NCBI GenBank assembly: GCA_021811365.1
Contig: JAJZPB010000002.1
Coordinates: 8,162-72,161 of the forward strand
From: a bacterium
GTDB lineage: Bacteria > Patescibacteriota > Minisyncoccia > Phycocordibacterales > Phycocordibacteraceae
DNA length: 64,000 bases
Direction: 5' to 3'
Below, piece by piece: positions 16,848 through 63,857 of the stretch. Positions within the stretch are counted from its first letter, which is position 1, and each line of letters begins with the position of its first letter. The notes beneath the pieces are model-generated. The model made no database searches and was not told the DNA's origin. It saw only the letters and a list, made by a program, of their open reading frames with translations. A program made the translations under genes and the position numbers.

Positions 16848-16955
16848 GTGTCTAGTATACCCTTAGAAATACTGCAGTTTCTGAATCCTGAAGCCGTTCT
16901 CCCCACACCCGCCGAGGTTGACTATATAGAGGTATGCACGGTATGAGTTGAAATC

Positions 16956-27766: not shown

Positions 27767-27880
27767 CTGCCGCCCGAAGACTTTAGTATCGGACAGACCC
27801 GAGAGTCTTATTTGTAGCCATTATTACGCAGCACGTTTTTAGAAAAGCTAGATAGGGCGAAGGGATTCCGAACTTTTCCC
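27767..27880 (+). repeat. att-like repeat copy b
   Basis: Near-identical by eye to 26510-26620 over about 110 nt, including the ...cgcagcacgtttttagaaaagctagatagggcgaaggg tail. Confidence 0.7.
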
Positions 27881-38712: not shown

Positions 38713-38784
38713 GTAGATAAAGGGCCAAGCTAGAAAAGAATACTTAGCGCAGTACTTGCATATTGGACCATTTTTCATAATATT

Positions 38785-40107
38785 TCAATCAGCCGAAATT
38801 GCGCCTCTAGTTACGCGCAGCTTTGTCTTTAGGCAGCCCAGCAGTTCTCGCTTCTCCTCCTTCGAACCGTCGACCAGGATATATTTGGCGTAGGTTGAGA
38901 CATCGATTTCTTGATCGGGACTTGCCGGGTTCGGCAGCCCAAGTACGGTCCGTTGGAAGCGGCCATAACGCCTTAGCTCATCCCGCAACTTCGCTTTTAC
39001 GTCGAGCTCGTTGAAGTCGATCTTGTCGAATATCTTTATAAGCTGCTCGATGAGCTCCTCCTCACGCAGATATTTGTTCCCCTTGCAGTAGTGGTCCTTG
39101 GAGCGGTTGCAGCCGTAGTAGACATAGCGGGCGGTGGTGCCGTTTTTGCGTGGCTTGTATTTCTCCTCCGCGCTTATGCCGGAGCCGCACTGGCCGCAGG
39201 TCATGAGCCGCGTGAAGGCGAACTCCCTGCTCTCGCGCACTACGACCTCTCGGCGCAGCTGCGACTGCACCTGGTCGAAGAGCTCTTTCGTAATCAGGGG
39301 CTCGTGCTTGCCCTGGTACCAATTGCCACTTCCTTTCGGAAACTCGAAGGTGCCGCAGTAGAAGGTATTCTGGAGGGTGCGGAACACATTGCTGAATGCC
39401 AGGTTCTTGTTCCCTTTCGTTTTGAAGTTGAGCTCGAACTTGAGCCAGTGGTGCACTTTCCGGCCCGACCATTTCTCGTATGCCACCTTTTCGAACATCT
39501 TGCGCACAACCGGTCCGCGTTCGGGGTCGATAACCATCTGACAGCGCTTCTCCATATCTTTCTGGGAGCGGTATCCGGTCGGCGGCACGGTTGGCCACAG
39601 TCCCATCTCCACTCTCGCCCTGAGCCCTCGCTTCACGTTTATGCCACGATTATCGTTCTCAAGCTTTGCCTGACCTCCCAAGATCGTGAGGAGGAATTTT
39701 TCATTCGGATTGTTTGAGAACCGTTGCCCGAAGGTGCGTATTTCCTCGAGGTACCCGGCGTCCATAAGGTCTACGACACGGCCGAGGTCGCCAGCGTTCC
39801 TGCTGATGCGGTCCGTTGCCCAGGTAAGGATGCCGTTGTACTTGCCGCTTTTAATTTCTTCCACGATCTCGTTGAAGACCGGCCGCTGGCCGGTATCCTT
39901 AGCCGAATGGCTTTCCCGCTTGAGCGCCACCACCTCAAGGCCGTCGCGCTCCGCGAGCGCAAGCATCTCTTTGATTTGGCTATCTATACTCAGGACCTGC
40001 CGTTCCTCGCTCTCCGTGCTCTTACGAGCATAAAGGCAGAATTTGACCTTAATGGGGGCTTGTATCTGCTTGGCTGGGAATCCTGCTGGTGCTTCTATTG
40101 TGTTCAT
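38785..40107 (-). CDS. Large serine recombinase (resolvase/invertase N-terminal domain plus recombinase and zinc-ribbon domains)
   Basis: YARKSTESEERQVLSIDSQ gives the catalytic Ser in the resolvase-type N-domain. GILTWATDRISRN, a recombinase domain, and a Cys cluster (CGQCGSG...CNRSKDHYC) follow. Confidence 0.9.
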   Translation of the reverse strand: MNTIEAPAGFPAKQIQAPIKVKFCLYARKSTESEERQVLSIDSQIKEMLALAERDGLEVVALKRESHSAKDTGQRPVFNEIVEEIKSGKYNGILTWATDRISRNAGDLGRVVDLMDAGYLEEIRTFGQRFSNNPNEKFLLTILGGQAKLENDNRGINVKRGLRARVEMGLWPTVPPTGYRSQKDMEKRCQMVIDPERGPVVRKMFEKVAYEKWSGRKVHHWLKFELNFKTKGNKNLAFSNVFRTLQNTFYCGTFEFPKGSGNWYQGKHEPLITKELFDQVQSQLRREVVVRESREFAFTRLMTCGQCGSGISAEEKYKPRKNGTTARYVYYGCNRSKDHYCKGNKYLREEELIEQLIKIFDKIDFNELDVKAKLRDELRRYGRFQRTVLGLPNPASPDQEIDVSTYAKYILVDGSKEEKRELLGCLKTKLRVTRGAISAD

Positions 40108-45786: not shown

Positions 45787-46230
45787 TCAGCTGCCCACAT
45801 CTCGCGAGCTCTTAGGCTCGCGTTCGCGCTTCCGCCTCTGCAGTTCGAACGTTTCTTTGCTGACGAGAATTCCATCGTCCTGGTCCTCAATATCGACAAG
45901 CATAGGACTCTCCCGCCGCCTCTGACGCGTGTCCGAATACTCAGATGCCTTTGGTGCGTAGCGCGGGGAGTTGTTCGATAGGAAGTACTTTATTGCTCCC
46001 ATGTCCCCCGCTTTGACTTTGTTCACGAGCTGCATTTCGCCGACGTCGCAGAGGTCTTCCCGGGCGAACTCCATAGTCTCTTCGACGAGACGGCCGAATT
46101 CCGGATTGCGCTTCATCCAGCGGTATATGGTTGAGCGGTCAATGCCGTGCTTACGCGCAACATGCGCGATGAACGGGGTCCTCGCAAGGTCTTCGAGCAC
46201 CTTCTTCCGTATGTTCTTGCTATACGCCAT
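45787..46230 (-). CDS. HTH-domain protein (terminase-small-subunit-like / transposase-HTH-like)
   Basis: IAHVARKHGIDRSTIYRWMKRNPEF is a helix-turn-helix. The C-terminus is acidic/basic. Sits immediately downstream of the ParB-methylase. Confidence 0.5.
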   Translation of the reverse strand: MAYSKNIRKKVLEDLARTPFIAHVARKHGIDRSTIYRWMKRNPEFGRLVEETMEFAREDLCDVGEMQLVNKVKAGDMGAIKYFLSNNSPRYAPKASEYSDTRQRRRESPMLVDIEDQDDGILVSKETFELQRRKREREPKSSRDVGS

Positions 46231-47563
46231 TCACTTTTACGCGCTTCTGCCCCGTGTGCTTTTCCCAGCGATTGAGAATCACCTCTGCGTATACGGGACT
46301 CTTCTCCATGATGCAGCAGCGTCGCCCGAGCGCGACCGACGCCATGAGGGTTGAGCCCGAACCGCCGAACGGCTCGAGCACGAGCTGCCCGCGGCGCGTG
46401 AGCACCTTGATGTACGGGATGAGCAGTGGCAGCGGCTTCACACCGAAGATGATGCCCTGGCCCGAAGACTTCTCGTCAGCGGCATTGTAGTCAAGGAAAT
46501 CGGTCGGGCAGTACTTCTTGTCCTTGCCGTACGGCTCCCAGTGCGGCTTTCCCGCGATACCGAAGAGCGCGGTGCGGTATTCCTCCTCGAACAAACCCTC
46601 CTCGTCGCCCAAGTTAAGGCCGCCGAATTCCTCGGTCGTTCCAACCATGGCGATGTCGTGTTTGCTGAAAAACTTATGCTGTCCGGCATACCCCTGGTTG
46701 CGGTTCGGGAGGTGCCAGACGAGCATGTTGCGCACCTTCCAGTGCTTCTCCATTTCGCCCCACACCTCGCGCAGGTTCTTCCAGTTTTCGTAGCAGATGA
46801 TGGCAAAGTCGGGAGCCGCCACCTTCGCCACGTTATCCATCCAGAGAGTCGTGAAGTCGGGCGGAATTGACTCGGTTTCAAGATATCGACGGTTCTTTTT
46901 CGCGCCAAAGCCTACCGTAGGTTCACCTGCACGCGTCTTGCCGTGGAGATAATCTAAACGGTATGGTGGGTCGGTCATCACCATATCGGCTTTTTCCGTG
47001 CCCATGAGCGCGAGCATGTCGGCTTCGATAGTGCTGTCGCCAATATAGAGACGGGAGCCGTCGAGATCGTACAAGTCGCCCTTCTGGCTCGTTATGGCGC
47101 TGATGCCAGCCTTGCCGAGCGCTTTCTCGAGGTCGAAATGTTCTTCTGCGCTCTCTTCTTCAAAAATCGCATCGAGCTCTTCTGAGCTGAACCCCACCTC
47201 CGTGAGGAACGATTCGTCGAATTCAGCGAGCAGCTCATAGTCCCATTCCCCTACGGCCTTGTTTAGCCTTAGGCATAGGTCTCTTTCCCTTTCGATATCG
47301 GGAATGTCGACGTACACAATGGGGACGAATTCGTACTTAAGCTGCTTGAGCGCCTCGTACCGAAGATTGCCCCCAATAATAATGCCTTCGCGCCCGGGAG
47401 CGTGGTTCACAACGAGCGGGTCGACGACGCCGTGCTTCGCGATGCTGTCGGTTACGGCTTTTTTGGTCGACTCGTCAATTACTCTCGGATTATAGGGGGC
47501 ATGCCTAAGCGAGTCGGTTGGAACGTACTCGATGCGGAGCTCGGTTTGGGTGGTGTTGGCCAT
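46220..47563 (-). CDS. ParB-like nuclease domain fused to DNA methyltransferase (N6-A/N4-C, DPPY type)
   Basis: The N-terminus has ParB N-domain motifs (NPRVIDESTKKAVTDSIAKHGVVDPLVV). The core has DPPY and a C-terminal EPFGGSGSTL SAM-binding motif. This architecture is common on phages and plasmids. Confidence 0.85.
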   Translation of the reverse strand: MANTTQTELRIEYVPTDSLRHAPYNPRVIDESTKKAVTDSIAKHGVVDPLVVNHAPGREGIIIGGNLRYEALKQLKYEFVPIVYVDIPDIERERDLCLRLNKAVGEWDYELLAEFDESFLTEVGFSSEELDAIFEEESAEEHFDLEKALGKAGISAITSQKGDLYDLDGSRLYIGDSTIEADMLALMGTEKADMVMTDPPYRLDYLHGKTRAGEPTVGFGAKKNRRYLETESIPPDFTTLWMDNVAKVAAPDFAIICYENWKNLREVWGEMEKHWKVRNMLVWHLPNRNQGYAGQHKFFSKHDIAMVGTTEEFGGLNLGDEEGLFEEEYRTALFGIAGKPHWEPYGKDKKYCPTDFLDYNAADEKSSGQGIIFGVKPLPLLIPYIKVLTRRGQLVLEPFGGSGSTLMASVALGRRCCIMEKSPVYAEVILNRWEKHTGQKRVKVNGV

Positions 47564-47767
47564 TACGGTTGGGTCTTTAAAGGGGCGCGTTGTAAAAGGA
47601 AGCCCCTCTATCCACACTACGGCCGGTTTTGCGAAATTTGAGAAATTTGACAGGCGTCTAGTTTTAATTTACTGTGCGAACAGCTTCTCGCATGCCAACG
47701 TTCCCAAATAGGGCTGAAACAAGCCGCCTTTGGGAGGCGTATAGGCAAATAGAGTATCCCGTTCCTT

Positions 47768-48745: not shown

Positions 48746-48781
48746 CCAGGAATAGCCTTATGTTGCCTCAGCGACAAAGTT

Positions 48782-48860
48782 TGAATCCCGAGTGGCCCGC
48801 CCGAAGACTTTTGTATCGGACAGACCCGAGAGTCTTGTTTTGAGCCATTTTACGGTACGC
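48782..48860 (+). repeat. att-like repeat copy d (truncated)
   Basis: tttgaatcccgagtggcccgcccgaagacttttgtatcggacagacccgagagtcttgttttgagcc. It includes a degenerate T-loop/acceptor tRNA 3' fragment. Confidence 0.65.
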
Positions 48861-49779: not shown

Positions 49780-49860
49780 TACGGTTCGAGAAAGGTAATC
49801 CTGGTCCTGGTGGGCCCGCCCGTAGTATTATTTTATTTATAGGACAGACCCGAACACTTA
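49780..49860 (+). repeat. att-like repeat copy e (tRNA-Trp 3'-end remnant with internal insertion)
   Basis: ggttcgagaaaggtaatcctggtcctggtgggcccgcccgtagtattattttatttataggacagacccgaacac. Confidence 0.55.
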
Positions 49861-53811: not shown

Positions 53812-54489
53812 TCAGCGCTCTTCGAATCGATCGATTCTCCCATCACTAAGCCATATACTCCGATCTATGAACGGCCGCGCCTCATCGGGTTCATGAGTTA
53901 CGAGCAGGATGGTTTGACCCGTTTCGTTTCTGAGTTTAGCGAAAAGCTCTAAGACGACTTTTGCCGACAGATGGTCAAGATTCGCCGTTGGTTCATCGGC
54001 AAACAACACCTTTGGGTTATTAATGAGAGCACGCGCCACCGCAACCCGTTGCTGTTCACCGCCCGATAGTTCACTCGGGTAGTGATCAAGCCGCTCGCCA
54101 AGACCGACAGTGGTGAGAAGTTGCTTGGCATGCTGTTTATATGCAGCAGATTCAACACCTAATGCCATAGCCGGAAGGTACACATTCTGTAGTGCGGTAA
54201 ATTCAGCAATGAGGGCATACTCTTGGAAAACATACCCGAGGCGTTTAAGACGGAATTGAGACCTTTCAGCATCCGTTAGATTCAGTACGTCGATACCATC
54301 TATGGAGATCGAACCTCCTGAGGGTACATCGAGCAACCCAAGCTGATGCAGAAGTGTTGATTTCCCCGAACCACTCCTCCCTGAAATAATAATGAACTCT
54401 CCCTCAGTAACGGAAAAGGAAATATCTTTGAGCGCGGGGTTCGGTACCTTTCCAGGATACGTCTTACTGAGATGCGATACCGTAATCAT
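53812..54489 (-). CDS. ABC transporter ATP-binding protein (MacB/LolD/FtsE-like)
   Basis: Walker A GRSGSGKST, Q-loop, signature LSGGEQQR, Walker B ILFADEPT, H-loop. Confidence 0.9.
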   Translation of the reverse strand: MITVSHLSKTYPGKVPNPALKDISFSVTEGEFIIISGRSGSGKSTLLHQLGLLDVPSGGSISIDGIDVLNLTDAERSQFRLKRLGYVFQEYALIAEFTALQNVYLPAMALGVESAAYKQHAKQLLTTVGLGERLDHYPSELSGGEQQRVAVARALINNPKVLFADEPTANLDHLSAKVVLELFAKLRNETGQTILLVTHEPDEARPFIDRSIWLSDGRIDRFEER

Positions 54490-54501: not shown

Positions 54502-55746
54502 TTAGCGGTCAATTGCCGTAAGAATGTTTTCCCGTGCTACCAGTTTACTTGGGAAATAGCCCGCCAACATGCTCGCAGCAACCAGCATTAAAGTACTAAT
54601 CGCGATTGTCACGGGCACATATACTGGGTACAACACGCCGATAGGAAGAACGATTGGATGCGCATCCATGAACGGGGTTACGACCCCGAAGGCAAGTCCT
54701 GCACCGATGATACTGCCTACCGTCATGTAGAAGAGCGACTGAAACACGTAGGATAGTACGATGATGGACTGCCGAAGGCCTATTGCTTTCAAAATACCGA
54801 TTTGTCGTCGCCTATTCACTGCGTTGATATAAATGAGCACAAATATAATGACCGCAGCAATCAGAATACTTATAGCGCTTACGATGTAGGAGATTAAATT
54901 AAACGCAGCAATAACCGGCGCCACCACGGCTAGCAGCTGCTTATAGGTCTGCACTTTTAGGTTCGGAAATAGCGCTCGGATCTTCGCGGCATACTGATCA
55001 ACTGACGCATACTGTAGATTCGTCTTAACGAGAATCTGCGAAGCCTCGTCATGCACCCCCAATTCCGACTCAGCCTCTCGTGACGTGATGATCGCGGAAT
55101 CACCAAGATTGCCGAGCAAGATGCTGTAAATGCCTTTTACGGTATACGTGCGAATGTCGCCATTACTGTAGGTAACACGCACCTTATCTCCTACCTTTAC
55201 TCCTCCGAGGTCTGCTGGTTGCGGGTATTTCCCGCCTCCGGCAACCCCCACGCCTAAGAGTATCTGGTCCGTATCCGAGGGGGAAAGGAATTGTCCAGCA
55301 ATAAGGTCTTTTTTGAAAGACAATACTGTATTTACATCACTTGGGTCGACGCCATACACTTCGCCCGAAGTGGTGACGTACTGTCCATCATGGTACTTAT
55401 CGAACGCAACTGACGAAGCTAGCAAGTACTCTCGCGTAGTTGCTTCGACACCTGGAATGGTCTGGATCTCTGCCCGTAACCGCGCTTGATCAGGAATGTA
55501 TGTCCGCACAGTCGGATACTGCTGCGGATTTATGACGACATCGGACGTACTGTTATCGACCAAGTTGGCATACACCGCTTGTGGGAATCCAGCAAGAATG
55601 CCCGCAGTAAAAGTCACGTTTAGAAACGAAAGTGCAAGAATACAGATCATAAGAAGCATCGAGGCTTTACTCCCTTGCACGATCGACTTTGTCGCTATAA
55701 AAAGTGCGGTGCGAACTGTTCTCATGCGTTTACTTTGGGACTGCAA
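54502..55746 (-). CDS. ABC transporter permease, FtsX-like/MacB-type (four TM helices plus large periplasmic domain)
   Basis: N-terminal TM, large extracytoplasmic domain, then three C-terminal TM helices. Sits directly upstream of the ATPase gene. Confidence 0.85.
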   Translation of the reverse strand: MQSQSKRMRTVRTALFIATKSIVQGSKASMLLMICILALSFLNVTFTAGILAGFPQAVYANLVDNSTSDVVINPQQYPTVRTYIPDQARLRAEIQTIPGVEATTREYLLASSVAFDKYHDGQYVTTSGEVYGVDPSDVNTVLSFKKDLIAGQFLSPSDTDQILLGVGVAGGGKYPQPADLGGVKVGDKVRVTYSNGDIRTYTVKGIYSILLGNLGDSAIITSREAESELGVHDEASQILVKTNLQYASVDQYAAKIRALFPNLKVQTYKQLLAVVAPVIAAFNLISYIVSAISILIAAVIIFVLIYINAVNRRRQIGILKAIGLRQSIIVLSYVFQSLFYMTVGSIIGAGLAFGVVTPFMDAHPIVLPIGVLYPVYVPVTIAISTLMLVAASMLAGYFPSKLVARENILTAIDR

Positions 55747-57337
55747 GCGCTTCCCCTTGTGTCAGACCGGAGGTAATCTCAATCATGCCATCCTGTCCTA
55801 CGATGCCGGTAGTAACCACTTGGGGAATAAGTGCCCTGCCCTCAACACGCATCACGGTGGTCGTAGTTCCTGTTTGCGTGAGTGCGCTCGCCGGCACAAG
55901 AAGCGCATTTGTGCTTGATGCTGTGGTAATCCACACGTTTGCGGTCATACCGGAACGCAAATTTGGGTAACTTTTATCAAACAGAATCGTCGTTGTGTAG
56001 TAAACCGAACCATCAACTATGGTCTCTGCTGGGTCTATTTCGGTCACTTTCCCGTAAAAAGAATCTGTTGAAGGAAACGCATACAATCCGATACGCACCG
56101 AGTCACCGACCGCGACACCCACAATATCGTCTTCTGATACATTTGCTTTCACTTCAAGGGGGTCAAGAGGGATAAGCGAAATAATGGTACGGCCCGGTCC
56201 GACCACCTCTCCCACTGATCCGTGCGTGTCCGTAACAACGCCATTGAAGGGCGCCACTATCTCATCATTGCGAATTTGAGCTTCAATCGCCGACGCATTT
56301 GCCTGTGCTTCGCGCACCATCGCCTGAGTAGCGGCAATGTTGTTTGTTGTTGACGTTGCAGTAGTGAGTGCAAGCTGGGACTGCGTCTGATCGAGCGTTG
56401 CCTTTGCAAGCGCAATCGTGTTCATCAAGGCGCGAACCTCTGATATAGCTGCGTTGGTCTCACTGAGTCCCGTCGACGCGCCGAGACGATACGCTGCTGC
56501 CTGCGCACTTGAAAGATTGTTGCTGTCTGCCACAACGGTCACCGCATCATTCATAAATGAATGTACCGCATCCAAACGACTTAACGCCGACGAGAGCGCC
56601 GAGTCGAGCACGGCTGGTGTACTCGCGCTGTCTAACAAGGCCGTGCTGCGCGTCCAGGCTGCGAGAGCCTGCCCTGCCGACACCCGCTCACGCGGGAACG
56701 CCAGTGTAAGCGCCGCATTGCTTACCACAAACGTTAACTCCGGGTTAGCGGTGCTCGCGCTCGTAAAGAAATTAGCAAGCTGCGTTGTAACAGCGTCGTT
56801 TGCCTTTGAGTATGCATCTGCCAGCGTACTTGGCACCTCCGCATAGGCGTTTTGTAGCTGCTGCTTCGCAACGGAGACCTGCGCCTGAGACACCCCCACA
56901 CTCTGCGGCGTTGCTCCGCTAAGCAGCTGATTGAGATTCGCGGTCGCTGCGCTTACGCTTGCCTGCGCCTGGGCAAGTTCCGCCTCAAGCACACTTGCGC
57001 TCTGCTTTGCAAGTACTTGACCACTTACGACCGTCTCTCCCACATGCACATTCAGCGCCGCAAGTTTCCCGGGCGCTTCAAAAAATAAATTGCTCGTCGT
57101 AGGTGGCTGAAGGTTTCCAGTTGCTAGCACCTCTTGTGCGACTGCCCCGCGCTGCACGGTAATCTGCATATATGTAGGCCCTCTGGCATACCCATACGCA
57201 TACCACCCAGCACCTACTGCGATAGCGATAAGGATGAATACGGGAACAATTATCCTCACGATGATAACTATACACCCGGCCCACGAAGTAAATATCTTGT
57301 TCTCCCCTATCGAACATCGAGCATCCCCTGGGCCCAA
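55730..57337 (-). CDS. HlyD-family membrane fusion (periplasmic adaptor) protein with extended Ala/Gln-rich coiled coil
   Basis: N-terminal TM, a long coiled-coil hairpin, and C-terminal beta-barrel/lipoyl-like segments (...VTEIDPAETIVDGSVYYTTTILFD...). Overlaps the permease start. Confidence 0.8.
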   Translation of the reverse strand: MGPGDARCSIGENKIFTSWAGCIVIIVRIIVPVFILIAIAVGAGWYAYGYARGPTYMQITVQRGAVAQEVLATGNLQPPTTSNLFFEAPGKLAALNVHVGETVVSGQVLAKQSASVLEAELAQAQASVSAATANLNQLLSGATPQSVGVSQAQVSVAKQQLQNAYAEVPSTLADAYSKANDAVTTQLANFFTSASTANPELTFVVSNAALTLAFPRERVSAGQALAAWTRSTALLDSASTPAVLDSALSSALSRLDAVHSFMNDAVTVVADSNNLSSAQAAAYRLGASTGLSETNAAISEVRALMNTIALAKATLDQTQSQLALTTATSTTNNIAATQAMVREAQANASAIEAQIRNDEIVAPFNGVVTDTHGSVGEVVGPGRTIISLIPLDPLEVKANVSEDDIVGVAVGDSVRIGLYAFPSTDSFYGKVTEIDPAETIVDGSVYYTTTILFDKSYPNLRSGMTANVWITTASSTNALLVPASALTQTGTTTTVMRVEGRALIPQVVTTGIVGQDGMIEITSGLTQGEALAVPK

Positions 57338-58407
57338 ATGACTACCTCATCGGGCGGACGCCTTGATGTACGGAACCGCGGTCCGGGACCTGTGCCGATT
57401 CGGAATACGAACGGGAGCGTCGCAGAATCGGTAGCGAACGCGTCTGCGAGTGACCGGTTTGCTTCAAGAATTCGGGCGCGCTCCGCGGGCGTAAATAGGC
57501 GCGCTTTATCAGGAGCCTGCAGAGACGCACCTAGGTACAGGATACCCGTCATGGGTTGCAGATTGAGACCGTTAAGCTGAGCGGTAAGCCAAAACCGCTC
57601 AACTGCGCGCCCCGCCTCAAAATAATCATGGGGAGTCGACCCCAGCATAAGGAGCGCGCCAAATGCGCCGGAACTCATGTACACACGCCTATTGCGCGCG
57701 GCTATTCCTTTTTGCATGCCAAATACATTTAGCAGACGCTGCAGACTCCAGTACCGAAGAAGCCGGAACGCTAGCTCTACGTGAGGCGGCGCAGCGAGGG
57801 TAGGGTAATAGAATCCTTTTCGTCGTAAGCGATCTTGCTGCTTAGTCCAGTTTATGGTTGAGAAAAATCCTTGGTGCACCGCATAGTTCCCGAAAATGAG
57901 TTCGTCGTAGACGCTCACTGCCTTTGCGATTTTGCGCATCAGTGCGCGATCATCGCACAAGCGCAGCGTTACGGTCGGCGTTTGGTCGAGGGAACTGCGC
58001 AGTGCTGCCCGCTGCGCAGTTGTGAGCGACGTACGCTTAAAGGGATTTCGATTCGTCGCGCGCGTCAATAAGCATCTCAAGAGAGGGTCAATGCTTTCCT
58101 GCGAATGTTTCGTTAACCGAAGTACGGCAACGCACCGCTCACCCTTCTCACGCGGGAAAGGTTCGAGCCTCGTCTCGTACCCTCTCGCACGCGCGGCAAT
58201 GCAAGCGCTTTCGCAAGCTGCCCCAAGTGAGACGTAGTCCGATGCGCTCGTAAATACCGAATCCGTCGTTTGCGGGCCCGGTTCGTAATACAGCTCCAGC
58301 GTCGCAAGGTCCCGCACAACCCACTGCCAGGGCTGATTATTGTCGCCCGAGGGGGCCTGTAGCGCAGCTGTGAGTATGTATTGTATATCGTCGACAGAGC
58401 GTTCCAT
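57307..58407 (-). CDS. Tandem nitroreductase-fold protein (SagB/ThcOx-type dehydrogenase-like)
   Basis: The N-terminal domain has SGDNNQPWQWVV, typical of the FMN nitroreductase family. A second nitroreductase-like half (GILYLGASLQAP...) follows, giving 366 aa overall. Confidence 0.7.
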   Translation of the reverse strand: MERSVDDIQYILTAALQAPSGDNNQPWQWVVRDLATLELYYEPGPQTTDSVFTSASDYVSLGAACESACIAARARGYETRLEPFPREKGERCVAVLRLTKHSQESIDPLLRCLLTRATNRNPFKRTSLTTAQRAALRSSLDQTPTVTLRLCDDRALMRKIAKAVSVYDELIFGNYAVHQGFFSTINWTKQQDRLRRKGFYYPTLAAPPHVELAFRLLRYWSLQRLLNVFGMQKGIAARNRRVYMSSGAFGALLMLGSTPHDYFEAGRAVERFWLTAQLNGLNLQPMTGILYLGASLQAPDKARLFTPAERARILEANRSLADAFATDSATLPFVFRIGTGPGPRFRTSRRPPDEVVIWAQGMLDVR

Positions 58408-58453
58408 ATAGCTACTCTAGTGGTGTGTAGGGTACCACGTCCCGGAACACAAA

Positions 58454-59389
58454 GTGTACAGAAGGAGAATCGTGGCGCGTATTCGGTATACTATCGTCAT
58501 GGACCAAACTCCGCCCCCTCTAACAAACGAAGCGTCTTACTATGCCGAAGCATTTTCCAGAAATATAGGGCTCCTCACAGAGGAAGAACAGCAGCGGCTT
58601 AAAAACTCTACCGTAGCAATAGCAGGTTTAGGCGGTGTGGGAGGCATTTTTACGCTTGGCTTCGCTCGGCTCGGCGTCGGCGGATACCACCTCGCCGACC
58701 CTGACGAATTTGAACGCGCAAACACTAACCGTCAAGCAGGAGCAATGACCTCAACCGAGGGAAAAGCGAAGGCAGCCGTTATGAAGTCAATGGTGCTCGA
58801 CATAAATCCCTACGCCCGAGTAAAGACGTTCTCGGGCAAAGAAGAGAACTTTGATGAGTTCCTTGGAGAGGCCGATGTCGTTGTCGACGCAATAGATTTT
58901 TTTTCTATCGACGCGAGACGGCGGCTTTACCCTGCGGCACGTGCCCAGAAAAAATTCGTCGTGTCTGCAGGTCCAATTGGTTTCGGATCGGCAATGCAGG
59001 TTTTTGACCCGTTTGGGATGAGCTTTGACGAATACTTCGACCTTCATGACAGAATGACCCAAGAAGAGATGCTGATTCGATTCGGCGTCGGCATTACCCC
59101 CACCCTGCTACAACGACCGTACTTTCATCCAGACAAAGTGGGGCTCAAGAACCACACGGCTCCGTCCCTCGTTACGGGTACATTTCTTGCAGCTAACCTT
59201 GTAACTTGCGAGGTGGTTAAATTGCTGCTGAAGCGTGGGAAAGTGAAATGCATACCGCACTCAAGCCACATCGACCCGTATGTGCGCAAATACAAAAAAG
59301 TACACCTTCGTCGAGGGAACCGTTCGCTTATTCAACGCTTGAAGATACGATACGTCGAGCGCTTAGTAGCAAGAGAAGTATCGCTGTGA
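58454..59389 (+). CDS. ThiF/MoeB/HesA family E1-like adenylyltransferase
   Basis: Glycine-rich nucleotide loop VAIAGLGGVGG and the LADPDEFERANTNRQ motif. Divergent from the nitroreductase gene. Confidence 0.85.
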   Translation: MYRRRIVARIRYTIVMDQTPPPLTNEASYYAEAFSRNIGLLTEEEQQRLKNSTVAIAGLGGVGGIFTLGFARLGVGGYHLADPDEFERANTNRQAGAMTSTEGKAKAAVMKSMVLDINPYARVKTFSGKEENFDEFLGEADVVVDAIDFFSIDARRRLYPAARAQKKFVVSAGPIGFGSAMQVFDPFGMSFDEYFDLHDRMTQEEMLIRFGVGITPTLLQRPYFHPDKVGLKNHTAPSLVTGTFLAANLVTCEVVKLLLKRGKVKCIPHSSHIDPYVRKYKKVHLRRGNRSLIQRLKIRYVERLVAREVSL

Positions 59390-59632
59390 CATAAAAATGC
59401 TGCGCGCTACTGTCGCGGAACCATACTGTGCGTTTCGTTCTCTCCGGAAATCTCGAGTCTCTCCGGCGGCAACGAAATCGCCGTAGCGGATTACCGCAAA
59501 AACGCAAGACAGAATTACCCAGTTCTCCTTTGTGCAACATTTGACGCACGGCGTACGATGCTCGCCTTTTTCCCGCGAAGCAATCCTTCTGATCGGCACC
59601 CATTAAAATCGGTGTATACTCGACGCAATTCC

Positions 59633-60283
59633 ATGAGGTCGCTTTTGGTTTACCCTGAAACCGTTCTGCAACGCGCCAAAAGAAGCTGCCGATCACCCTT
59701 TGATGCATTTTGGCTTTTGAGCCAGCTTTCAACCTACCCTTTTATAGGGCTTCTCATGCTGCGATGGCGCGTCCAAATACACCGCCCCGACTCGTTTGAT
59801 GTCCCACAAGGAACACTTATCCTAGCAAACCACCAATCATACTACGACCCATTTCTTATTACCTACGGCCTTGGCCCTCACAACTGGCCTCGCGTCTTGC
59901 CCTGCCGGTATCCGGTCGCGCAAGACGTCATTCGCGACCGCGCCCTCGCGCTTCCTATTCGAGCACTTGGCGGTTACGACATTGGGGGATCTAAAATTGA
60001 ACGCGCCAAAAAATTACTCTATACACGAGAGTTGCTTGACCGGGGTTACACGATCATCATTTTCCCGGAAGGGGCGATTACGAAGACGGGCGAAATGATT
60101 AGCGACTTCAAGTTAGGGGCGCAGATGCTATTTTCTCGAGCCTACCCAGTCGTATTTACAAAGCTCCAGGGCTTTACGAAAACGGCGCGGCGAGAGCGCA
60201 CGTACTCGATTACATACAGCCCTGTGTTGCGAGGATCCTCTGAGGAATTGAGCCAACGAATGCGGGACTTCTATCGATCCTGA
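59633..60283 (+). CDS. Lysophospholipid acyltransferase family protein (PlsC / OlsA-like)
   Basis: NHQSYYDP (HxxxxD acyltransferase motif) and IFPEGAITK (FPEG motif). Start placed at MRSLLVYPETV. Confidence 0.8.
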   Translation: MRSLLVYPETVLQRAKRSCRSPFDAFWLLSQLSTYPFIGLLMLRWRVQIHRPDSFDVPQGTLILANHQSYYDPFLITYGLGPHNWPRVLPCRYPVAQDVIRDRALALPIRALGGYDIGGSKIERAKKLLYTRELLDRGYTIIIFPEGAITKTGEMISDFKLGAQMLFSRAYPVVFTKLQGFTKTARRERTYSITYSPVLRGSSEELSQRMRDFYRS

Positions 60284-60538: not shown

Positions 60539-61399
60539 CTATTCTCGACCCGTGTTGACTGCCGCGTTTGCAGGATTTCTATTTTCATCTTCAAACTGAT
60601 AGCCGCGTGCTTGCATCTCACGCCACATGCGGTTATACCACAGTCGGTATCCCTCGCTGCTTGGGTGGGTGTAGTCATATGAAAAATACCGCTTTGGATC
60701 TTCTGAGAATGGGTTGTTCAAGTCTGTCTCGGGGAATAGCTCTATGTATGCCACGTTATGAAGGTTGCATACTTGTATGAACAAATCCCGCACCTTTAGC
60801 ATGCGTCGGACGAGTACAGAGCGAATAAAAGGCGGGAAGAGAGGTGAGAGACCGAAATTTGCGTAAAAAAGAACAACCACCTTGTGATCGCTTATTGCTG
60901 CAGTTTCTGAAATGAGTCTGGTCAGTGCCCGAGTAAGCACCGGTAGACTGGTGAAATGCCAGATATCATTCCCGCCCGTGAAGAGTAAGACGAGATTGAA
61001 ATGCTGCCCTTGAACCTTTGCTAACTGTTGTACTACCTCGCTTGTCGTTGCACCATTCACTCCCAAATTAATGATTTCCGTGTGTGGGAAATCGCGCCCA
61101 AGCCTTCCAGCTATGGAGTCTTCGGGCTGCGCAGCACCCCTGCCAAACGCGGTACTGTCCCCCAGTATCAGTATCCGTTTCCCATTAGGGCGCAGTGCGG
61201 AATACGATTTTCGGTGCTTGCGCCACGTTACGAAATGAACAAAATCAAACCACAGAAGGCGTCCCGCCATCCTGAGCGCCTGCAGCACCACGAAGGCGAT
61301 GCCGAGTAGTGCAAATATGGTTAAAGCATCAAGTAAAAGCTGAACAGGCGATGTCCCCCGAGTCGTAAAGTCATGCACTATCTGAGAAAAAAATATCAT
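60539..61399 (-). CDS. SGNH/GDSL hydrolase family protein, membrane anchored
   Basis: ILGDSTAFG (block I, Ser), GGNDIW (block III), DYTHPS (block V, Asp-x-x-His). Confidence 0.8.
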   Translation of the reverse strand: MIFFSQIVHDFTTRGTSPVQLLLDALTIFALLGIAFVVLQALRMAGRLLWFDFVHFVTWRKHRKSYSALRPNGKRILILGDSTAFGRGAAQPEDSIAGRLGRDFPHTEIINLGVNGATTSEVVQQLAKVQGQHFNLVLLFTGGNDIWHFTSLPVLTRALTRLISETAAISDHKVVVLFYANFGLSPLFPPFIRSVLVRRMLKVRDLFIQVCNLHNVAYIELFPETDLNNPFSEDPKRYFSYDYTHPSSEGYRLWYNRMWREMQARGYQFEDENRNPANAAVNTGRE

Positions 61400-62133
61400 G
61401 CTGAAAGTAAGCGTTCTACATGGGGACGAATTTGTACATACCAGAGTGCATAGCCCTCATCTGTGGGGTGAGTCTGATCTCCAGCAAAATGACCGCCCAA
61501 CGCAACAGGATCATCCTCACGATGGAGCGAGAGGCACGCCACGCTATTTTCCGCACAGGTGTGCATAAACCGCTCTTGCCACGCCATTCCGCGTCTCCTG
61601 TAAACGCGATTAAACGGAAAATGGAACAAAGGGGCGGCTGCAGGATTGTTCGGACCAACATAGAGCACCTTTAGACCAAGCCGTCTTGCCTCCTGAATAG
61701 CAGCGCGAAGAGCGCGGTCCATTCGCTCGAGAGACGTAGCGTGTACGATGTCCATACCGCCAACCGCAAGAACAACCAAATCATAGGGATGCTCGGGTGT
61801 CAGCGCTTTCGAAAGCGCTGACGCTAGCGTGCGAAGCTTAAGACCACGCCGCGACCAGTTTTCAATATGCGCGTCCGGATAGTCAAGCCCAATTCGTCCT
61901 GGTACCGTTCGAACCGAGTCGCTCGCGCCAGTGCCGTAACCCGTACTATCGCCCACATAGAGTATCCGTGGACTCCCGTCAGCGCTCATGCGTTCAAACG
62001 GCCGTATACGATGTGTCAATTGACGGGAGATACATAGGTACCATCCGATCCTGAGGCCAATAACAGCCGACACTAAACCGCAGGTCGCGACAACTGCTAA
62101 AAGTATGCGGAAACAGAGCGCCATATCGACCAT
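61396..62133 (-). CDS. SGNH/GDSL hydrolase family protein, membrane anchored (paralogue of the adjacent gene)
   Basis: YVGDSTGYG, GGMDIV, DQTHPT. Its stop overlaps the start of 60539-61399 by 4 nt. Confidence 0.8.
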   Translation of the reverse strand: MVDMALCFRILLAVVATCGLVSAVIGLRIGWYLCISRQLTHRIRPFERMSADGSPRILYVGDSTGYGTGASDSVRTVPGRIGLDYPDAHIENWSRRGLKLRTLASALSKALTPEHPYDLVVLAVGGMDIVHATSLERMDRALRAAIQEARRLGLKVLYVGPNNPAAAPLFHFPFNRVYRRRGMAWQERFMHTCAENSVACLSLHREDDPVALGGHFAGDQTHPTDEGYALWYVQIRPHVERLLSA

Positions 62134-62210: not shown

Positions 62211-62933
62211 ATGCTGATACGGATTGTGCGAACACAGCACTCAACAAAGACGAATATTTTGTCCCGCGCCGCGGAAAGCGCCCTGGCACACCGTGCCGCA
62301 AGCCAAGTGATTAGCGCGCTTTGGAACGGCGAACCAGCACTCTCTTTTGAGGTTATTAAAGATGCGCTCGGCAAACCTCGCGTGAATATAGACTGTGACG
62401 GGACACAAAGCGCGTGTCCGATCTCATGGGCGCACGCCTACCCATACGCACTCGCGGCAGGCATACGCAACGAGTCCATGGACATTGGCGCCGATATCGA
62501 GCGCGTGCGTAGATTCCGTCGAGAGGTAATCACCGCATTTCTCACAGACCGCGAATGCGCACATGTACTCGAAAGAGAAGAAGCGACCCGCGCTTACCAC
62601 ACAACCCTTACCTGGTCGATTAAAGAGGCGATACTGAAAAGTATCGGTCTTGGACTACGCCTGAACCCTCGACGCATTGATGTAACTGAGGCACTCACGC
62701 TCCCGAATTACCACATCGGCTTCGCATACGTCGACAATATACGCGTCCCGTTGCAAATATGGAAACACCGTACTGCTGACTCGCACTTCGTGGCAGCAGC
62801 CGTTGCAATTCACCGCAACTACACCTACACTTTACGGAATGGCTTCTTCCTCGAGCGTTCCCTCGGAAGCGCGCCGGGTTGTGCTCTCGGTTATCGCCCA
62901 GACGGTCGGCCTCCCTTCGGAGAGCATCTCTGA
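62211..62933 (+). CDS. 4'-phosphopantetheinyl transferase (Sfp-type)
   Basis: GKPRV, GADIERV (Mg-binding), WSIKEAILKSIG (W/KEA motif). Confidence 0.75.
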   Translation: MLIRIVRTQHSTKTNILSRAAESALAHRAASQVISALWNGEPALSFEVIKDALGKPRVNIDCDGTQSACPISWAHAYPYALAAGIRNESMDIGADIERVRRFRREVITAFLTDRECAHVLEREEATRAYHTTLTWSIKEAILKSIGLGLRLNPRRIDVTEALTLPNYHIGFAYVDNIRVPLQIWKHRTADSHFVAAAVAIHRNYTYTLRNGFFLERSLGSAPGCALGYRPDGRPPFGEHL

Positions 62934-63138
62934 TGAGGCGCATCTGGCTGACATAGCGCCTGACTCGATTGCGCTGTTTGAGTTGCTCGTGTGTTTCGAA
63001 AACGTGCTCGGTACAACAGTACGGTACGAAGACATTGCGGCTATTGAGACTGTCGGTGACGTCATTGCATACGCGGAACACTTGCCGCAAGAAGTTATCA
63101 ATGCCGCCCTCGAACGCACCGCCTCTACCGCCATATGA
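62839..63138 (+). CDS. Acyl carrier protein
   Basis: LADIAPDSIALFELL contains the phosphopantetheine Ser in a DSI/L context, and the size is ACP-like. The start is uncertain: the frame overlaps the PPTase 3' end, and a GTG/TTG start further in is possible. Confidence 0.6.
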   Translation: MASSSSVPSEARRVVLSVIAQTVGLPSESISDEAHLADIAPDSIALFELLVCFENVLGTTVRYEDIAAIETVGDVIAYAEHLPQEVINAALERTASTAI

Positions 63139-63857
63139 CCACGGACGTACGCTTTACCATTCTCTCAATGCCTGCAGACATAGCACAAGCACGCTCTATG
63201 GTGAGCCGCGTATATGCCGAATCCGGCTATCATCCTGACCAAGAGGAGCACGCTATTCCGCGCACCCTTGACCGCGCAGACACTATTACCTTGGGAGCAT
63301 TCCACGGCGATACGCTTGTTGGAACGATTTCTCTCGTGATCGACGGCCCACAGGGTCTTCCTATGGACTGCATTTATAGTGAGGAACTTACGCCCTTGCG
63401 CGCATCACAGTTACGTATAGCCGAGGTGGGACAGTTTGCTATTGACTCTGAAACCTACCGCGCGAGCACCGGCAGAGCAGTGCCCCGATTCCTTGCGCTT
63501 GCATTCTTTGGCGCTGCACTGTCCGGAGCAATCGCGCATGAGTGCGCGTACATATGCGTTGCGGTGAATCCGAAGCATGCTCGATTTTATCGATTGCTCG
63601 GGTTCCGTAAAATTGGTGAGGAAAAACGCTACGGAGCAGTAAGTGCCCCCGCAATCGCACTGGTCTTCCGCACGGAAGACTGGCAGCGCCAAAGCACGTT
63701 GCTAGGACTACTTGGGCGAGAAGTGGAGAAGCACCTGCTTCCGCAGGAGTTCTTTTTCTCCGCAACTACGCGCCCCTCTCAGACACTCAGTACCGCACGT
63801 GTTGAACTGGCTACAACGCAGGATACTGCAGCCAGGCTTCCTCAAACCGCGCCGTAA
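63135..63857 (+). CDS. GNAT-fold N-acyltransferase resembling acyl-ACP-dependent N-acyl amino acid synthases (OlsB/FeeM-like)
   Basis: RIAEVGQFAI resembles the E-x-[SG]-R/Q-[FL]-A-V core of OlsB/LuxI-like acyl-ACP N-acyltransferases. The start codon overlaps the ACP stop. Family call is by motif recollection only. Confidence 0.55.
   Translation: MTTDVRFTILSMPADIAQARSMVSRVYAESGYHPDQEEHAIPRTLDRADTITLGAFHGDTLVGTISLVIDGPQGLPMDCIYSEELTPLRASQLRIAEVGQFAIDSETYRASTGRAVPRFLALAFFGAALSGAIAHECAYICVAVNPKHARFYRLLGFRKIGEEKRYGAVSAPAIALVFRTEDWQRQSTLLGLLGREVEKHLLPQEFFFSATTRPSQTLSTARVELATTQDTAARLPQTAP

Follow-up and report, generated by a model that had tools for sequence, protein, structure and literature searches.

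A candidate acyl-oxazolone lipid gene cluster with split ThiF-type and Acg/FDO-type tailoring enzymes in a probable CPR-like bacterium

We analysed a stretch of 64,000 nucleotides (the window), whose host is probably an uncultured, ultra-small (CPR-like) bacterium. An earlier note had singled out a ThiF-type adenylating enzyme and a nitroreductase-fold protein encoded there, with an efflux pump and lipid-acylation genes as neighbours. Both open reading frames were confirmed, with family matches far above chance, and Pfam and NCBIfam searches likewise placed an efflux pump and lipid-acylation genes beside the pair. The features of the locus are as follows.

53812 to 54489, minus strand: ATPase subunit of the ABC exporter (PF00005, from the record of the identical gene)
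54502 to 55746, minus strand: FtsX/MacB-type ABC permease (PF02687, E 3.2e-16)
55730 to 57337, minus strand: membrane-fusion adaptor (HlyD/MacA-like) of the exporter (TIGR01730, E 6.3e-41; HlyD_D23, HlyD_3)
57307 to 58407, minus strand: Acg/FDO-type flavoprotein of the nitroreductase superfamily, 366 aa (PF00881, NCBIfam, AlphaFold/Foldseek)
58408 to 58498, no strand: 91-bp intergenic gap separating the divergent reductase/exporter and ThiF operons
58499 to 59389, plus strand: predicted ThiF-family ATP-dependent adenylating cyclase, TyzB-like (PF00899, PRK08223, AF2 fold)
59558 to 60283, plus strand: PlsC/LPLAT-type acyltransferase (PF01553, E 3.6e-15)
60539 to 61399, minus strand: GDSL/SGNH hydrolase 1 with an N-terminal hydrophobic anchor (PF13472, E 8.2e-23)
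61396 to 62133, minus strand: GDSL/SGNH hydrolase 2 with an N-terminal hydrophobic anchor (PF13472, E 1.5e-14)
62211 to 62933, plus strand: Sfp-type 4'-phosphopantetheinyl transferase, PPTase (PF01648, E 2.4e-14)
62881 to 63138, plus strand: predicted dedicated acyl carrier protein, ACP (PF00550, E 2.7e-8; 85-aa gene call)
63135 to 63857, plus strand: predicted FeeM-type N-acyl amino acid synthase (PF21926, E 5.1e-36)

The Pfam match of the reductase to PF00881 (E 1.5e-7) was confined to residues 6-36. In NCBIfam, the full-length protein aligned with the C-terminal halves of PRK07877, the 'Rv1355c family' (E 5.5e-49), and PRK14851 (E 1.1e-47), and it also matched the Acg family (E 1.2e-39). 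The top PDB sequence match was Acg (2YMV), and the same monomeric protein was the top Foldseek match (E 2.9e-14, TM 0.73) of the AlphaFold (AF2) model (pLDDT 85), about half of which was spanned by canonical nitroreductases of ~190-220 aa (TMq 0.31-0.39). The description of this protein as a tandem nitroreductase held insofar as it is one chain of about twice the canonical length, but an internal duplication was not detectable by sequence when one half was aligned with the other (hhalign, E 0.13). More than 3388 relatives were found by profile search, many of them fused to ThiF. The reductase keeps 26 family-invariant residues and forms a divergent branch: its best relative is 45% identical and typical family members 24-30%, and it deviates from the consensus at many positions that are nearly invariant in the family. 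Judged by sequence and predicted structure, the reductase is of the Acg/FDO type, as in Rv1355c (TrzS), and not of the SagB/McbC or NfsB type. Acg 2YMV has likewise been reported as the nearest solved structure to the FDO domain of TrzS (PMC12856293).

The ThiF open reading frame spans 58454-59389 on the plus strand (311 aa). Its likely start is the ATG at 58499 used in public gene calls (296 aa), and an alternative GTG at 58472 is preceded by AAGGAG at 58462-58467. The ThiF and reductase genes point away from each other and lie 46-91 bp apart; a Patescibacteria locus (L012) shows the divergent arrangement as well. The ThiF protein matched PF00899 in Pfam (E 5.8e-38) and, in NCBIfam, PRK08223 with 334.5 bits, above the curated cut-off of 266. 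It also matched the ThiF segments of two fusion models, PRK14851 and PRK14852, and the ThiF half of the 'Rv1355c family' (E 4e-15); the PRK08223/PRK14851 type was a far better fit than that of Rv1355c. The residues R21, N22, G43xG45xxG48, D67, R78, Q79, K91, D130 and D133 are invariant; 'ADVVVDAID' aligned with 'ADVVLDCTD' of E. coli ThiF, and the invariant adenylation residues include the Asp motif equivalent to D217 of TrzS, which is essential in that enzyme (PMC12856293). Only two cysteines are present and neither is conserved, and therefore a Zn site and a catalytic cysteine are lacking. The AF2 model (pLDDT 92.8) matched the E. coli ThiF fold at TM 0.85. The best PDB sequence match was TcdA/CsdL (E 1.1e-11), the tRNA t6A cyclodehydratase, also a ThiF-family enzyme performing ATP-driven cyclodehydration of an N-acylated amino acid moiety. 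However, TcdA acts on tRNA, only the N-terminal adenylation half is similar, and the TcdA model NF011696 gave 56.7 bits, far under its cut-off of 304.

The FeeM homologue lies 3.7 kb downstream of the ThiF/reductase pair, with oppositely oriented genes in between, and aligned with the ACP-dependent FeeM, whose crystal structure is known (PDB 2G0B), with 41% identity over 180 residues (E 2.2e-37). The start of its gene overlaps the stop codon of the ACP gene, whose open reading frame begins at 62803 (called start 62881) and whose translation contains the DS(I) phosphopantetheine-attachment motif; an ACP-loading enzyme was not evident within the cluster. The PlsC-like translation carries HX4D (NHQSYYD) and FPEG motifs. 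The two GDSL genes overlap by 4 bp, and hydrolase 1 shows GDS and DxxH motifs. The adaptor gene (called start about 57259) is co-directional with the reductase gene and directly downstream of it.

The association of these genes extends well beyond the window. Across a set of 80 species, other than the host, that carry this ThiF type, the reductase was present in 60, FeeM in 57 and at least one of the two in 68. Where the reductase was present, it was fused to ThiF in 15 species and separate, mostly adjacent, in 45. When the count was restricted to the 43 loci flanked by 5 kb or more on each side, the numbers were 36 (reductase), 37 (FeeM) and 40 (at least one). All three domains are joined in a 989-aa protein of Desulfovibrio vulgaris Hildenborough (pDV1, WP_011176612.1), to whose successive segments, beginning with the N-terminal domain, the window FeeM, ThiF and reductase proteins aligned with 33%, 39% and 25% identity, respectively; a second FeeM-ThiF-nitroreductase fusion was found in Desulfobacula (L083). 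Patescibacteria-type relatives keep the whole 11-gene set (reductase, ThiF, PlsC-like acyltransferase, two GDSL hydrolases, PPTase, ACP, FeeM and MacAB-type exporter) in shuffled order, including the PlsC-like gene and the tandem GDSL pair. The PPTase gene adjoins that of the ACP in relatives too. The ABC ATPase is conserved together with the permease and adaptor, the permease adjoins ThiF/FDO/FeeM in both Patescibacteria and Planctomycetota loci, and an ABC/MFP exporter recurs in the latter. The efflux-pump and lipid-acylation neighbours are thus conserved partners, not bystanders. Among the lipid-acylation genes, treated in the earlier note as unrelated context, is the putative substrate-forming FeeM-type synthase.

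ThiF and nitroreductase domains together with a FeeM-type synthase define a published oxazolone pathway, represented by OxzAB, TyzACB and TrzAS (10.1101/2020.06.11.147165; PMC10404671; PMC12856293), in which Rv1355c (TrzS) is a demonstrated ThiF-cyclase/FDO oxazolone synthetase (PMC12856293). We consider it probable that the reductase and ThiF are the split tailoring enzymes of a pathway from N-acyl amino acid to acyl-oxazolone (azlactone) lipid; the kinship to TyzB, TyzC, OxzB and TrzS is drawn from NCBIfam models, homologous fusion proteins and published work. The Sfp-type PPTase would prime the dedicated ACP, and the FeeM-type synthase would acylate the amino group of an amino acid with a fatty chain taken from acyl-ACP; this amino acid is likely aromatic, by analogy with FeeM, OxzA and TyzA. 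The ThiF-like enzyme would adenylate the free carboxylate with ATP, and attack by the amide oxygen would close the 5(4H)-oxazolone ring. The Acg/FDO flavoprotein would remove two hydrogens from C-alpha and C-beta, giving a conjugated 4-arylidene oxazolone; as in Tyz, cyclisation and desaturation may occur in either order. The earlier suggestion that a small molecule is adenylated and oxidised with FMN is in essence supported, but the step is not 'unrecognised', as its chemistry has been published for OxzB, TyzB/TyzC and TrzS. Several points count against this pathway: the characterised synthases OxzA, TyzA and TrzA use acyl-CoA as donor, not ACP; the reductase and ThiF genes are divergent instead of co-transcribed, and the FeeM gene is distant from them; the reductase is a divergent family member; and the cluster shows no evident ACP-loading enzyme. 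In addition, characterised FDOs need O2 and many relatives are strict anaerobes (Desulfobacterota); therefore, the electron acceptor may differ.

Among the known systems, TyzACB of Mycobacterium tuberculosis comprises the acyltransferase TyzA (Rv2336), the ThiF-type cyclase TyzB (Rv2338c/'MoeW') and the FDO desaturase TyzC (Rv2337c) (PMC10404671). It resembles the window, as seen through models and literature, in its stand-alone ~300-aa ThiF, ~370-aa monomeric Acg-like FDO and N-acyl amino acid synthase, in the position of the synthase on the strand opposite part of the set, and in an adjacent lipid transporter (mmpL9, compared to the MacAB-like pump). However, TyzA takes acyl-CoA, whereas the window synthase is closely related to FeeM and accompanied by a dedicated ACP and PPTase, and acyl-ACP would be its expected donor. 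Furthermore, ThiF and FDO share one operon in Tyz, and the window, whose host is not an actinobacterium, adds a PlsC-like gene and a pair of GDSL genes. In Pseudoalteromonas rubra (OxzAB) and mycobacteria (TrzAS, Rv1356c/Rv1355c), an N-acyltransferase is paired with a fused ThiF-nitroreductase synthetase (10.1101/2020.06.11.147165; PMC12856293). The two catalytic domains and the class of the partner enzyme are shared with the window, where the domains are split and divergently transcribed. The uncharacterised fusions PRK14852 (989-aa D. vulgaris type) and PRK14851 (~680 aa, ThiF plus nitroreductase, Desulfobacterota) are the closest named-model sequence type for the window ThiF after PRK08223; the D. 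vulgaris fusion differs in being one polypeptide among exosortase/PEP-CTERM genes, without the ACP, PPTase and GDSL set. In the Fee cluster from soil eDNA, the gene for the N-acyl tyrosine synthase FeeM also adjoins that of its ACP, FeeL. To our knowledge, this cluster has no ThiF/FDO pair, and its downstream tailoring differs.

The alternative that survives best, although we regard it as unlikely, is that the same enzymes make another product. The azlactone would be transient, and would be hydrolysed to an N-acyl 2,3-dehydro-amino acid like stieleriacine, kyonggic acid or thalassotalic acid, or would serve the PlsC-type or GDSL/SGNH enzymes in acylating a different acceptor, e.g., a lipid head group or envelope polymer. 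The clusters for these three compounds (NasY, ThiF and nitroreductase) likewise encode ThiF and nitroreductase separately, close to FeeM-type synthases; a cluster of this kind in Stieleria, a genus found among the relatives, has been linked to stieleriacine, an N-acyl dehydrotyrosine (PMC12479983). Producers accumulate N-acyl dehydrotyrosines with no oxazolone detected, and the role of ThiF was called enigmatic (PMC12479983). The ThiF of Stieleria mannarensis is 44% identical to that of the window, and an ABC/MFP exporter is often adjacent in the Planctomycetota clusters. Moreover, oxazolones are electrophilic synthetic intermediates, and the two GDSL genes and PlsC, conserved in the Patescibacteria-type cluster, are absent from the oxz, tyz and trz loci. 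However, the oxazolone was a stable, isolable product in every reconstituted system, and the GDSL and PlsC proteins could equally supply acyl chains. The stieleriacine-type clusters, whose products are open-chain and often methylated, also lack the ACP, PPTase, GDSL and PlsC set.

The earlier note had read the pair as the hallmark of azoline-forming RiPP (TOMM) machinery without YcaO. According to this reading, an E1-like protein and a SagB-type dehydrogenase would form a TOMM remnant or variant acting on a ribosomal peptide, with YcaO elsewhere or replaced. The likeness is at superfamily level only: E1-like and nitroreductase-fold proteins are both found in TOMM clusters (SagBCD, McbBCD, ocin-ThiF-like docking), where the last step is also flavin-dependent dehydrogenation of a five-membered heterocycle, and the RiPP enzymes PaaA and MccB appeared among the sequence and structure matches of ThiF. 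However, no TOMM, docking or ocin-ThiF model matched at E ≤ 0.01, while PRK08223 passed, and the reductase groups with Acg/FDO. TOMM ThiF-like proteins are non-catalytic or docking, whereas the window ThiF is a predicted ATP-dependent cyclase on a small lipid. The absence of YcaO and of a precursor, both required in TOMM systems, was borne out: no YcaO was found by Pfam among 30 of the longer ORFs of the window or in the 10 proteins of the cluster, none of the families conserved beside this ThiF type in the 80 other species is YcaO-like, and the intergenic gaps of 91, 168 and 255 bp contain no small Cys/Ser/Thr-rich ORF. The conserved partner is instead an N-acyl amino acid synthase. We consider the TOMM reading effectively refuted and its probability very small.

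An equally improbable explanation is a housekeeping MoeB/ThiF-type activator of ThiS/MoaD lying by chance beside a generic NfsB-type nitroreductase. Database names of relatives ('molybdopterin/thiamine biosynthesis adenylyltransferase', 'MoeY', 'MoeW') and the E. coli ThiF fold as the closest one point that way. However, the models of ThiF, MoeB, MoeZ and TcdA scored 47-76 bits against cut-offs of 152-647, the ThiF protein has no conserved cysteine, no ThiS/MoaD-like ORF with a GG end was found near the two genes, the pairing with reductase and FeeM recurs across phyla in conserved or fused form, and TyzB ('MoeW') was shown to be no molybdenum-cofactor enzyme; this reading is also effectively refuted. 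An E1-like anti-phage enzyme (CBASS Cap2 or 6A-MBL type), suggested by a defence island 5-25 kb upstream and weak PADLOC matches of ThiF to E1-E2 models (≤43 bits) and NF058523 cap2_3 (32.9 bits), is hardly credible, as these matches, in profiles of 430-780 residues, are confined to ~100 residues in a common Rossmann adenylation core, ThiF has no E2 or JAB domain, PADLOC gave no match for the reductase or FeeM, and the cluster sits outside the att-bounded island.

In the favoured acyl-oxazolone pathway, the PlsC-like protein and the two membrane-anchored GDSL hydrolases would be conserved accessories, possibly supplying acyl chains, or alternatively processing the product further or opening the ring to give an N-acyl dehydro-amino acid. 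The extended cluster conserved in CPR-type genomes is undescribed in the literature searched, and its MacAB-like ABC exporter, predicted to be co-transcribed with the reductase, would carry the lipid to the envelope or outside.

We found that the ThiF-reductase pair shows all the testable features that define the oxazolone-synthetase pathway (OxzAB/TyzACB/TrzAS): a ThiF enzyme with an intact adenylation site, a double-length Acg-like flavin-dependent oxidoreductase (FDO) adjacent to and divergent from it, an N-acyl amino acid synthase nearby, and co-occurrence of these genes, separate or fused, in relatives. The divergent pair described in the earlier note is indeed present, and both protein families were confirmed with Pfam and NCBIfam. 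The three core genes are as follows.

57307-58407, minus strand: reductase gene, 366 aa, divergent from the adjacent ThiF gene
58454-59389, plus strand: ThiF gene, with an ATG at 58499 in public gene calls for identical DNA, giving 296 aa
63135-63857: FeeM-type N-acyl amino acid synthase gene (PF21926, 124 bits, E 5.1e-36)

The reference pathways differ in how these activities are divided among proteins. In Pseudoalteromonas rubra, OxzA N-acylates Tyr or Phe and OxzB, a fused ThiF-nitroreductase, yields 4-arylidene oxazolones, namely tyrazolones and phenazolones (10.1101/2020.06.11.147165). Mycobacterium tuberculosis carries out the OxzAB chemistry with the separate proteins TyzA, TyzB (a ThiF protein, 'MoeW') and TyzC, a monomeric Acg-like FDO (PMC10404671), and produces tryptazolones with TrzA and TrzS (Rv1355c, the namesake of PRK07877), where the ThiF aspartate D217 of TrzS is needed for cyclisation (PMC12856293). 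Cyclisation and desaturation can occur in either order in the Tyz system, and cyclisation comes first in TrzS (PMC12856293). A related set of NAS, ThiF and nitroreductase is found in producers of the N-acyl dehydrotyrosines stieleriacines, kyonggic acids and thalassotalic acids (PMC12479983).

The window ThiF protein matched PF00899 (E 5.8e-38) and passed the curated NCBIfam cut-off of PRK08223 (334.5 bits versus 266). The ThiF segments of the fusion families PRK14851 (288 bits), PRK14852 (208 bits) and PRK07877 were matched too. An alignment of 27 sequences showed that the adenylation residues R21, N22, G43xG45xxG48, D67, R78, Q79, K91, D130 and D133 are invariant, and the window segment ADVVVDAID pairs with ADVVLDCTD of E. 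coli ThiF. The only cysteines are C237 and C251, and no conserved cysteine was found among the invariant or near-invariant columns of the 27 sequences, indicating that the protein has neither a Zn site nor the catalytic cysteine of the sulfur-carrier-activating enzymes. The structural model adopted the ThiF fold with high confidence. On the NCBIfam models and these residues, the protein is assigned to the type related to TyzB, OxzB and TrzS, with a predicted intact adenylation site. An alternative start codon, GTG at 58472, has AAGGAG in front of it.

Among the nearest structural neighbours of the ThiF model (E 7e-16) were 9EGB, 9EGC and 9EGD, recent depositions of the Tenacibaculum discolor ThiF-fold enzyme 'AclA', described as 'in complex with substrate'. 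[quoted passage not shown] Our literature search found no publication on the T. discolor AclA, which may be another such enzyme.

The reductase matched the Pfam nitroreductase family only over a short stretch (residues 6-36, E 1.5e-7). Three NCBIfam models matched the whole protein: PRK07877 ('Rv1355c family', E 5.5e-49) and PRK14851 (E 1.1e-47), each through its C-terminal half, and the FMN oxidoreductase family Acg (E 1.2e-39). For an AlphaFold2 model built from a 62-sequence alignment (pLDDT 85, pTM 0.88), the best solved match by a wide margin was M. smegmatis Acg (2YMV; E 2.9e-14, TM 0.73), and 2YMV was the top match by sequence as well as by fold. The same Acg structure is the nearest solved structure to the FDO of TrzS (PMC12856293). 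Canonical nitroreductases, BluB and iodotyrosine deiodinase matched the model with E of 7e-5 or higher and covered about half of the chain. A comparison of the N-terminal and C-terminal halves with hhalign gave a 24-column motif match (E 0.13), and a duplication is not demonstrable at the sequence level. Membership in the Acg/DosR-regulon group FDO-B (Rv2032, Rv3127, Rv3131) was rejected, because the protein scored 136.7 bits against the Acg-family model NF047509 (cut-off 199) and its gene is linked to ThiF and FeeM. Linkage to ThiF and acyltransferase genes has been tied to FDO-A rather than FDO-B (PMC10404671).

The synthase on the substrate side showed 41% identity over 180 residues to the crystallised FeeM (PDB 2G0B, E 2.2e-37), and was matched by the N-terminal domain of the 989-aa fusion family PRK14852 in NCBIfam. 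Directly upstream lies an ACP gene (PF00550), whose stop codon overlaps the FeeM start, with an Sfp-type PPTase gene beside it. The FeeM-fold synthase thus has a dedicated ACP, on which it is predicted to depend. The PlsC-like protein encoded in the cluster retains intact HX4D and FPEG motifs in translation, and both GDSL proteins retain GDS and DxxH motifs and carry N-terminal hydrophobic anchors; with these motifs intact, the enzymes are probably active. The adaptor gene of the MacAB-type exporter starts about 47 bp downstream of the reductase gene on the same strand. The cluster resembles TyzB/TyzC in having ThiF and FDO as split proteins, but differs in its FeeM/ACP-type acyl donor module, its extra GDSL and PlsC genes, and its MacAB-type exporter. 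A consensus scan of 53.5-64 kb yielded promoter-like sites at the level expected from shuffled sequence (8 versus 8.4) and no convincing terminators, and the operon structure could therefore not be refined. Just past the right end of the window, downstream of FeeM, positions 15805-17092 of the source-contig locus (L001) encode a 177-aa protein without a Pfam match and, on the opposite strand, a small class I methyltransferase. Methyltransferases are also encoded close to the ThiF/reductase pair in 11 further loci, as well as in the Stieleria clusters.

The earlier note had described the pair as the hallmark of azoline-forming (TOMM) RiPP machinery lacking a YcaO partner, and had suggested that it could be an unrecognised system. 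YcaO was absent from the 40 window proteins searched with Pfam (10 from the cluster and 30 others, including all real ORFs of at least 300 aa), and clustering of the neighbouring ORFs in 80 loci of ThiF relatives gave no YcaO-like family among the conserved neighbours. A six-frame scan of 56.5-60.5 kb, where intergenic gaps of 91, 168 and 255 bp surround the pair, found no small, non-overlapping ORF rich in Cys, Ser and Thr; the sole ORF with more than 35% of these residues, of 23 aa, overlaps the reductase gene over 94% of its length. No TOMM-related model occurred among the 23 NCBIfam families matching ThiF or the 4 matching the reductase (E ≤ 0.01), and no SagB/McbC-type entry was among the top 50 structural matches of the reductase model. 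The profile search that the note had proposed, setting ocin-ThiF (TIGR03693) against MoeB/ThiF, placed the window protein in neither family, with PRK08223 taking their place. We therefore rejected the TOMM/azoline assignment, since YcaO, precursor, ocin-ThiF docking protein and SagB-type dehydrogenase were all absent from these searches, and a false RiPP call for this gene pair is averted. Nor is the system unrecognised, as the chemistry of the oxazolone pathway has already been described.

A housekeeping role, with a MoeB/ThiF-type activating enzyme next to an NfsB-type reductase, was likewise rejected. The window ThiF scored 47-76 bits against the ThiF, MoeB, MoeZ and TcdA models, whose cut-offs are 152-647 bits; a ThiS/MoaD-like small ORF ending in GG was not found near the pair, and the lack of a conserved cysteine is also inconsistent with this role. 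A defence function as a CBASS E1-like ThiF was ruled out on PADLOC scores.

The oxazolone-pathway assignment was examined further among relatives. ThiF had 854 database relatives at E ≤ 1e-10, with the named top matches coming from Patescibacteria (Moranbacteria), Omnitrophota and Nanoarchaeota MAGs. A word-index search with the reductase returned 9 relatives (best identity 45%), and the profile built from them retrieved more than 3388 proteins, including stand-alone forms of about 360 aa and ThiF-fused forms of about 650-670 aa, some named 'MoeY' (Massilia, Duganella, Janthinobacterium). PRK14851, with 679 aa, likewise joins ThiF to the window reductase type. A scan of one genome per species with an alignment of ThiF relatives returned 80 loci, and we searched their called ORFs with iterated HMMs of the 11 window cluster proteins. 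The reductase was present in 60 of the 80 loci (fused to ThiF in 15, separate in 45), FeeM in 57, and at least one of the two in 68. For the 43 loci with at least 5 kb on both sides, the corresponding numbers were 36, 37 and 40. Most separate reductase genes lay within 350 bp of the ThiF gene. Three gene arrangements were as follows.

Gene arrangements at loci of ThiF relatives
Desulfobacterota: FeeM, then a ThiF-reductase fusion of about 680 aa
Planctomycetota (including Stieleria mannarensis, Roseiconus and Rhodopirellula): at least one FeeM, an FtsX/ABC/adaptor exporter, then reductase and ThiF
Patescibacteria type (Moraniibacteriota, Saccharibacteria, Doudnabacteria and 2 MAGs labelled Bdellovibrionales): full window set in shuffled order, namely reductase, ThiF, 2 membrane-anchored GDSL hydrolases, FeeM, PlsC-like acyltransferase, Sfp-type PPTase, ACP and the MacAB-type ABC exporter

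The best matches of all 11 window proteins came from the Patescibacteria-type loci; the closest of these loci (L012) has the divergent reductase/ThiF layout seen in the window. The two Bdellovibrionales-labelled GTDB MAGs with the full cluster are loci L008 and L013. Other conserved neighbour sets comprised a LolA-like protein with an MMPL/RND transporter and an outer-membrane protein, exosortase with PEP-CTERM proteins, and methyltransferases. The trio of LolA-like protein, MMPL/RND-type transporter and outer-membrane protein of about 480 aa flanks this ThiF type in Omnitrophota and Desulfobacterota loci (L015, L017, L020, L028, L031, L033, L034, L043, L044, L050 and others), where exosortase and PEP-CTERM proteins are often present and the MacAB pump is absent. 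The lipid-export partner varies with the type of cell envelope.

Fusions of all three activities were found in two loci. WP_011176612.1 (989 aa), from plasmid pDV1 of Desulfovibrio (Nitratidesulfovibrio) vulgaris Hildenborough, contains FeeM (43-198), ThiF (316-565) and nitroreductase (609 onward) domains in Pfam. Its gene (NC_005863.1, 37254-40223; locus L087) is annotated only as 'ThiF family adenylyltransferase'. The protein showed 33% identity to the window FeeM (E 9e-19), 39% to the window ThiF (E 2e-42) and, over residues 613-989, 25% to the window reductase (E 3e-20). In Desulfobacula (L083), an ORF of 904 aa encodes the three domains in this order too. These fusions are strong evidence that the FeeM, ThiF and reductase activities work on one substrate chain. 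From its sequence, WP_011176612.1 is a putative synthetase of the oxazolone type, and its host is a strict anaerobe amenable to genetic work. Its gene sits among genes for XrtA/PEP-CTERM glycosyltransferases and PEP-CTERM proteins. Separately, pBdHAGR2 of Bdellovibrio sp. HAGR004 (AP029178.1, a 48-kb 'plasmid'; L088/L089) carries an ABC ATPase, permease, adaptor and ThiF in this order. This ThiF is 41% identical to that of the window; a weak reductase-like stretch, partly annotated, lies about 9 kb from it, and no FeeM was detected on pBdHAGR2.

The window is chromosomal, carrying SerRS, TopA, DnaX, RelA/SpoT, ParB, Dus and MiaA, with no rRNA in it. Relatives of its SerRS reach at most 62% identity (named ones: Patescibacteria bacterium 44%, Chloroflexota bacterium 45%), and on this ground the host lineage is deep-branching and only tentatively CPR-like. 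An att-bounded island is present at tRNA-Trp and does not include the cluster (53.8-63.9 kb). Repeats of the tRNA-Trp 3' end (26446-26518) and about 50 nt downstream occur at 27752-27822 (72%), 48779-48849 (82%) and 49804-49825. These repeats flank a lower-GC block of about 22 kb within 26446-49854, with a large serine recombinase gene inside (38785-40107), and the block looks like one or more elements integrated at tRNA-Trp. The island carries PD-Lambda-2 B (30321-31532, 443 bits) and C (31536-32660, 143 bits; Pfam 'Beta protein') and a Type III restriction-modification pair, Mod (33292-35772, 691 bits) and ResIII helicase (35785-38778). Near its right end, a gene (46220-47617) joins a ParB_N domain to an N6/N4 DNA methyltransferase, and a P-type cation ATPase is encoded at 40974-43472. 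Elsewhere in the window, the product of 25408-26367, beside tRNA-Trp, weakly matched the type IV secretion pilin family PF18895, with a score below the cut-off, and 5301-6644 encodes a coiled-coil protein that has a C39-like peptidase domain.

From homology and gene context, we infer that the pair would perform ATP-dependent cyclisation and flavin-dependent desaturation of an N-acyl amino acid to an acyl-oxazolone. The ACP would be primed by the PPTase, and FeeM would move the acyl group of acyl-ACP onto an amino acid, which is probably aromatic. ThiF would adenylate the carboxylate, letting the amide oxygen close the oxazolone ring; the FDO would desaturate the C-alpha/C-beta bond, and the MacAB-like exporter would move the product outward. 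No acyl-ACP synthetase, ACP-loading enzyme or other extra gene was common to more than 3 of the 10 Patescibacteria loci. Because many of the relatives are strict anaerobes, some family members may lack the dependence on O2 that TyzC and TrzS display.

The 11-gene module occurs, in shuffled order, in Patescibacteria (CPR) genomes of several classes and in a few Bdellovibrionales-labelled MAGs. Our literature search found no papers on this pathway in Patescibacteria, and this conserved 11-gene module of CPR-type genomes therefore appears undescribed. CPR bacteria are widely regarded as incapable of fatty acid synthesis, and the module might for this reason harvest acyl chains from the host or environment. 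These would be loaded onto the private ACP by the GDSL and PlsC enzymes, and an electrophilic acyl-oxazolone or dehydro-amino-acid lipid would be built and exported as a signal, antimicrobial or envelope modifier, possibly with an electron acceptor other than O2. We consider this joint reading, in which an undescribed 11-gene module serves an episymbiotic or predatory interaction, speculative and rather unlikely.

The assignment would provide a concrete biochemical role for a gene pair labelled 'molybdopterin/thiamine biosynthesis adenylyltransferase', 'MoeY/MoeW', 'nitroreductase' or 'hypothetical'. The recurrent linkage to dedicated exporters (MacAB-type here, MMPL/LolA-like or exosortase sets elsewhere, and mmpL9 in M. 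tuberculosis) supports the view that the cell places these lipids in its envelope or releases them. The oxazolone/N-acyl dehydro-amino-acid lipid pathway has been studied so far in Proteobacteria, Actinobacteria and Planctomycetota. Our data suggest that it also reaches CPR-type bacteria, Omnitrophota, Nitrospirota and strictly anaerobic Desulfobacterota, and its distribution in anaerobes poses the question of what serves the flavoenzyme as oxidant when O2 is absent. Being compact and conserved, such a lipid cluster of ultra-small symbionts would lend itself to heterologous expression. With the chemistry itself known already, the finding corrects misleading annotations and widens the taxonomic and ecological range of acyl-oxazolone lipids.
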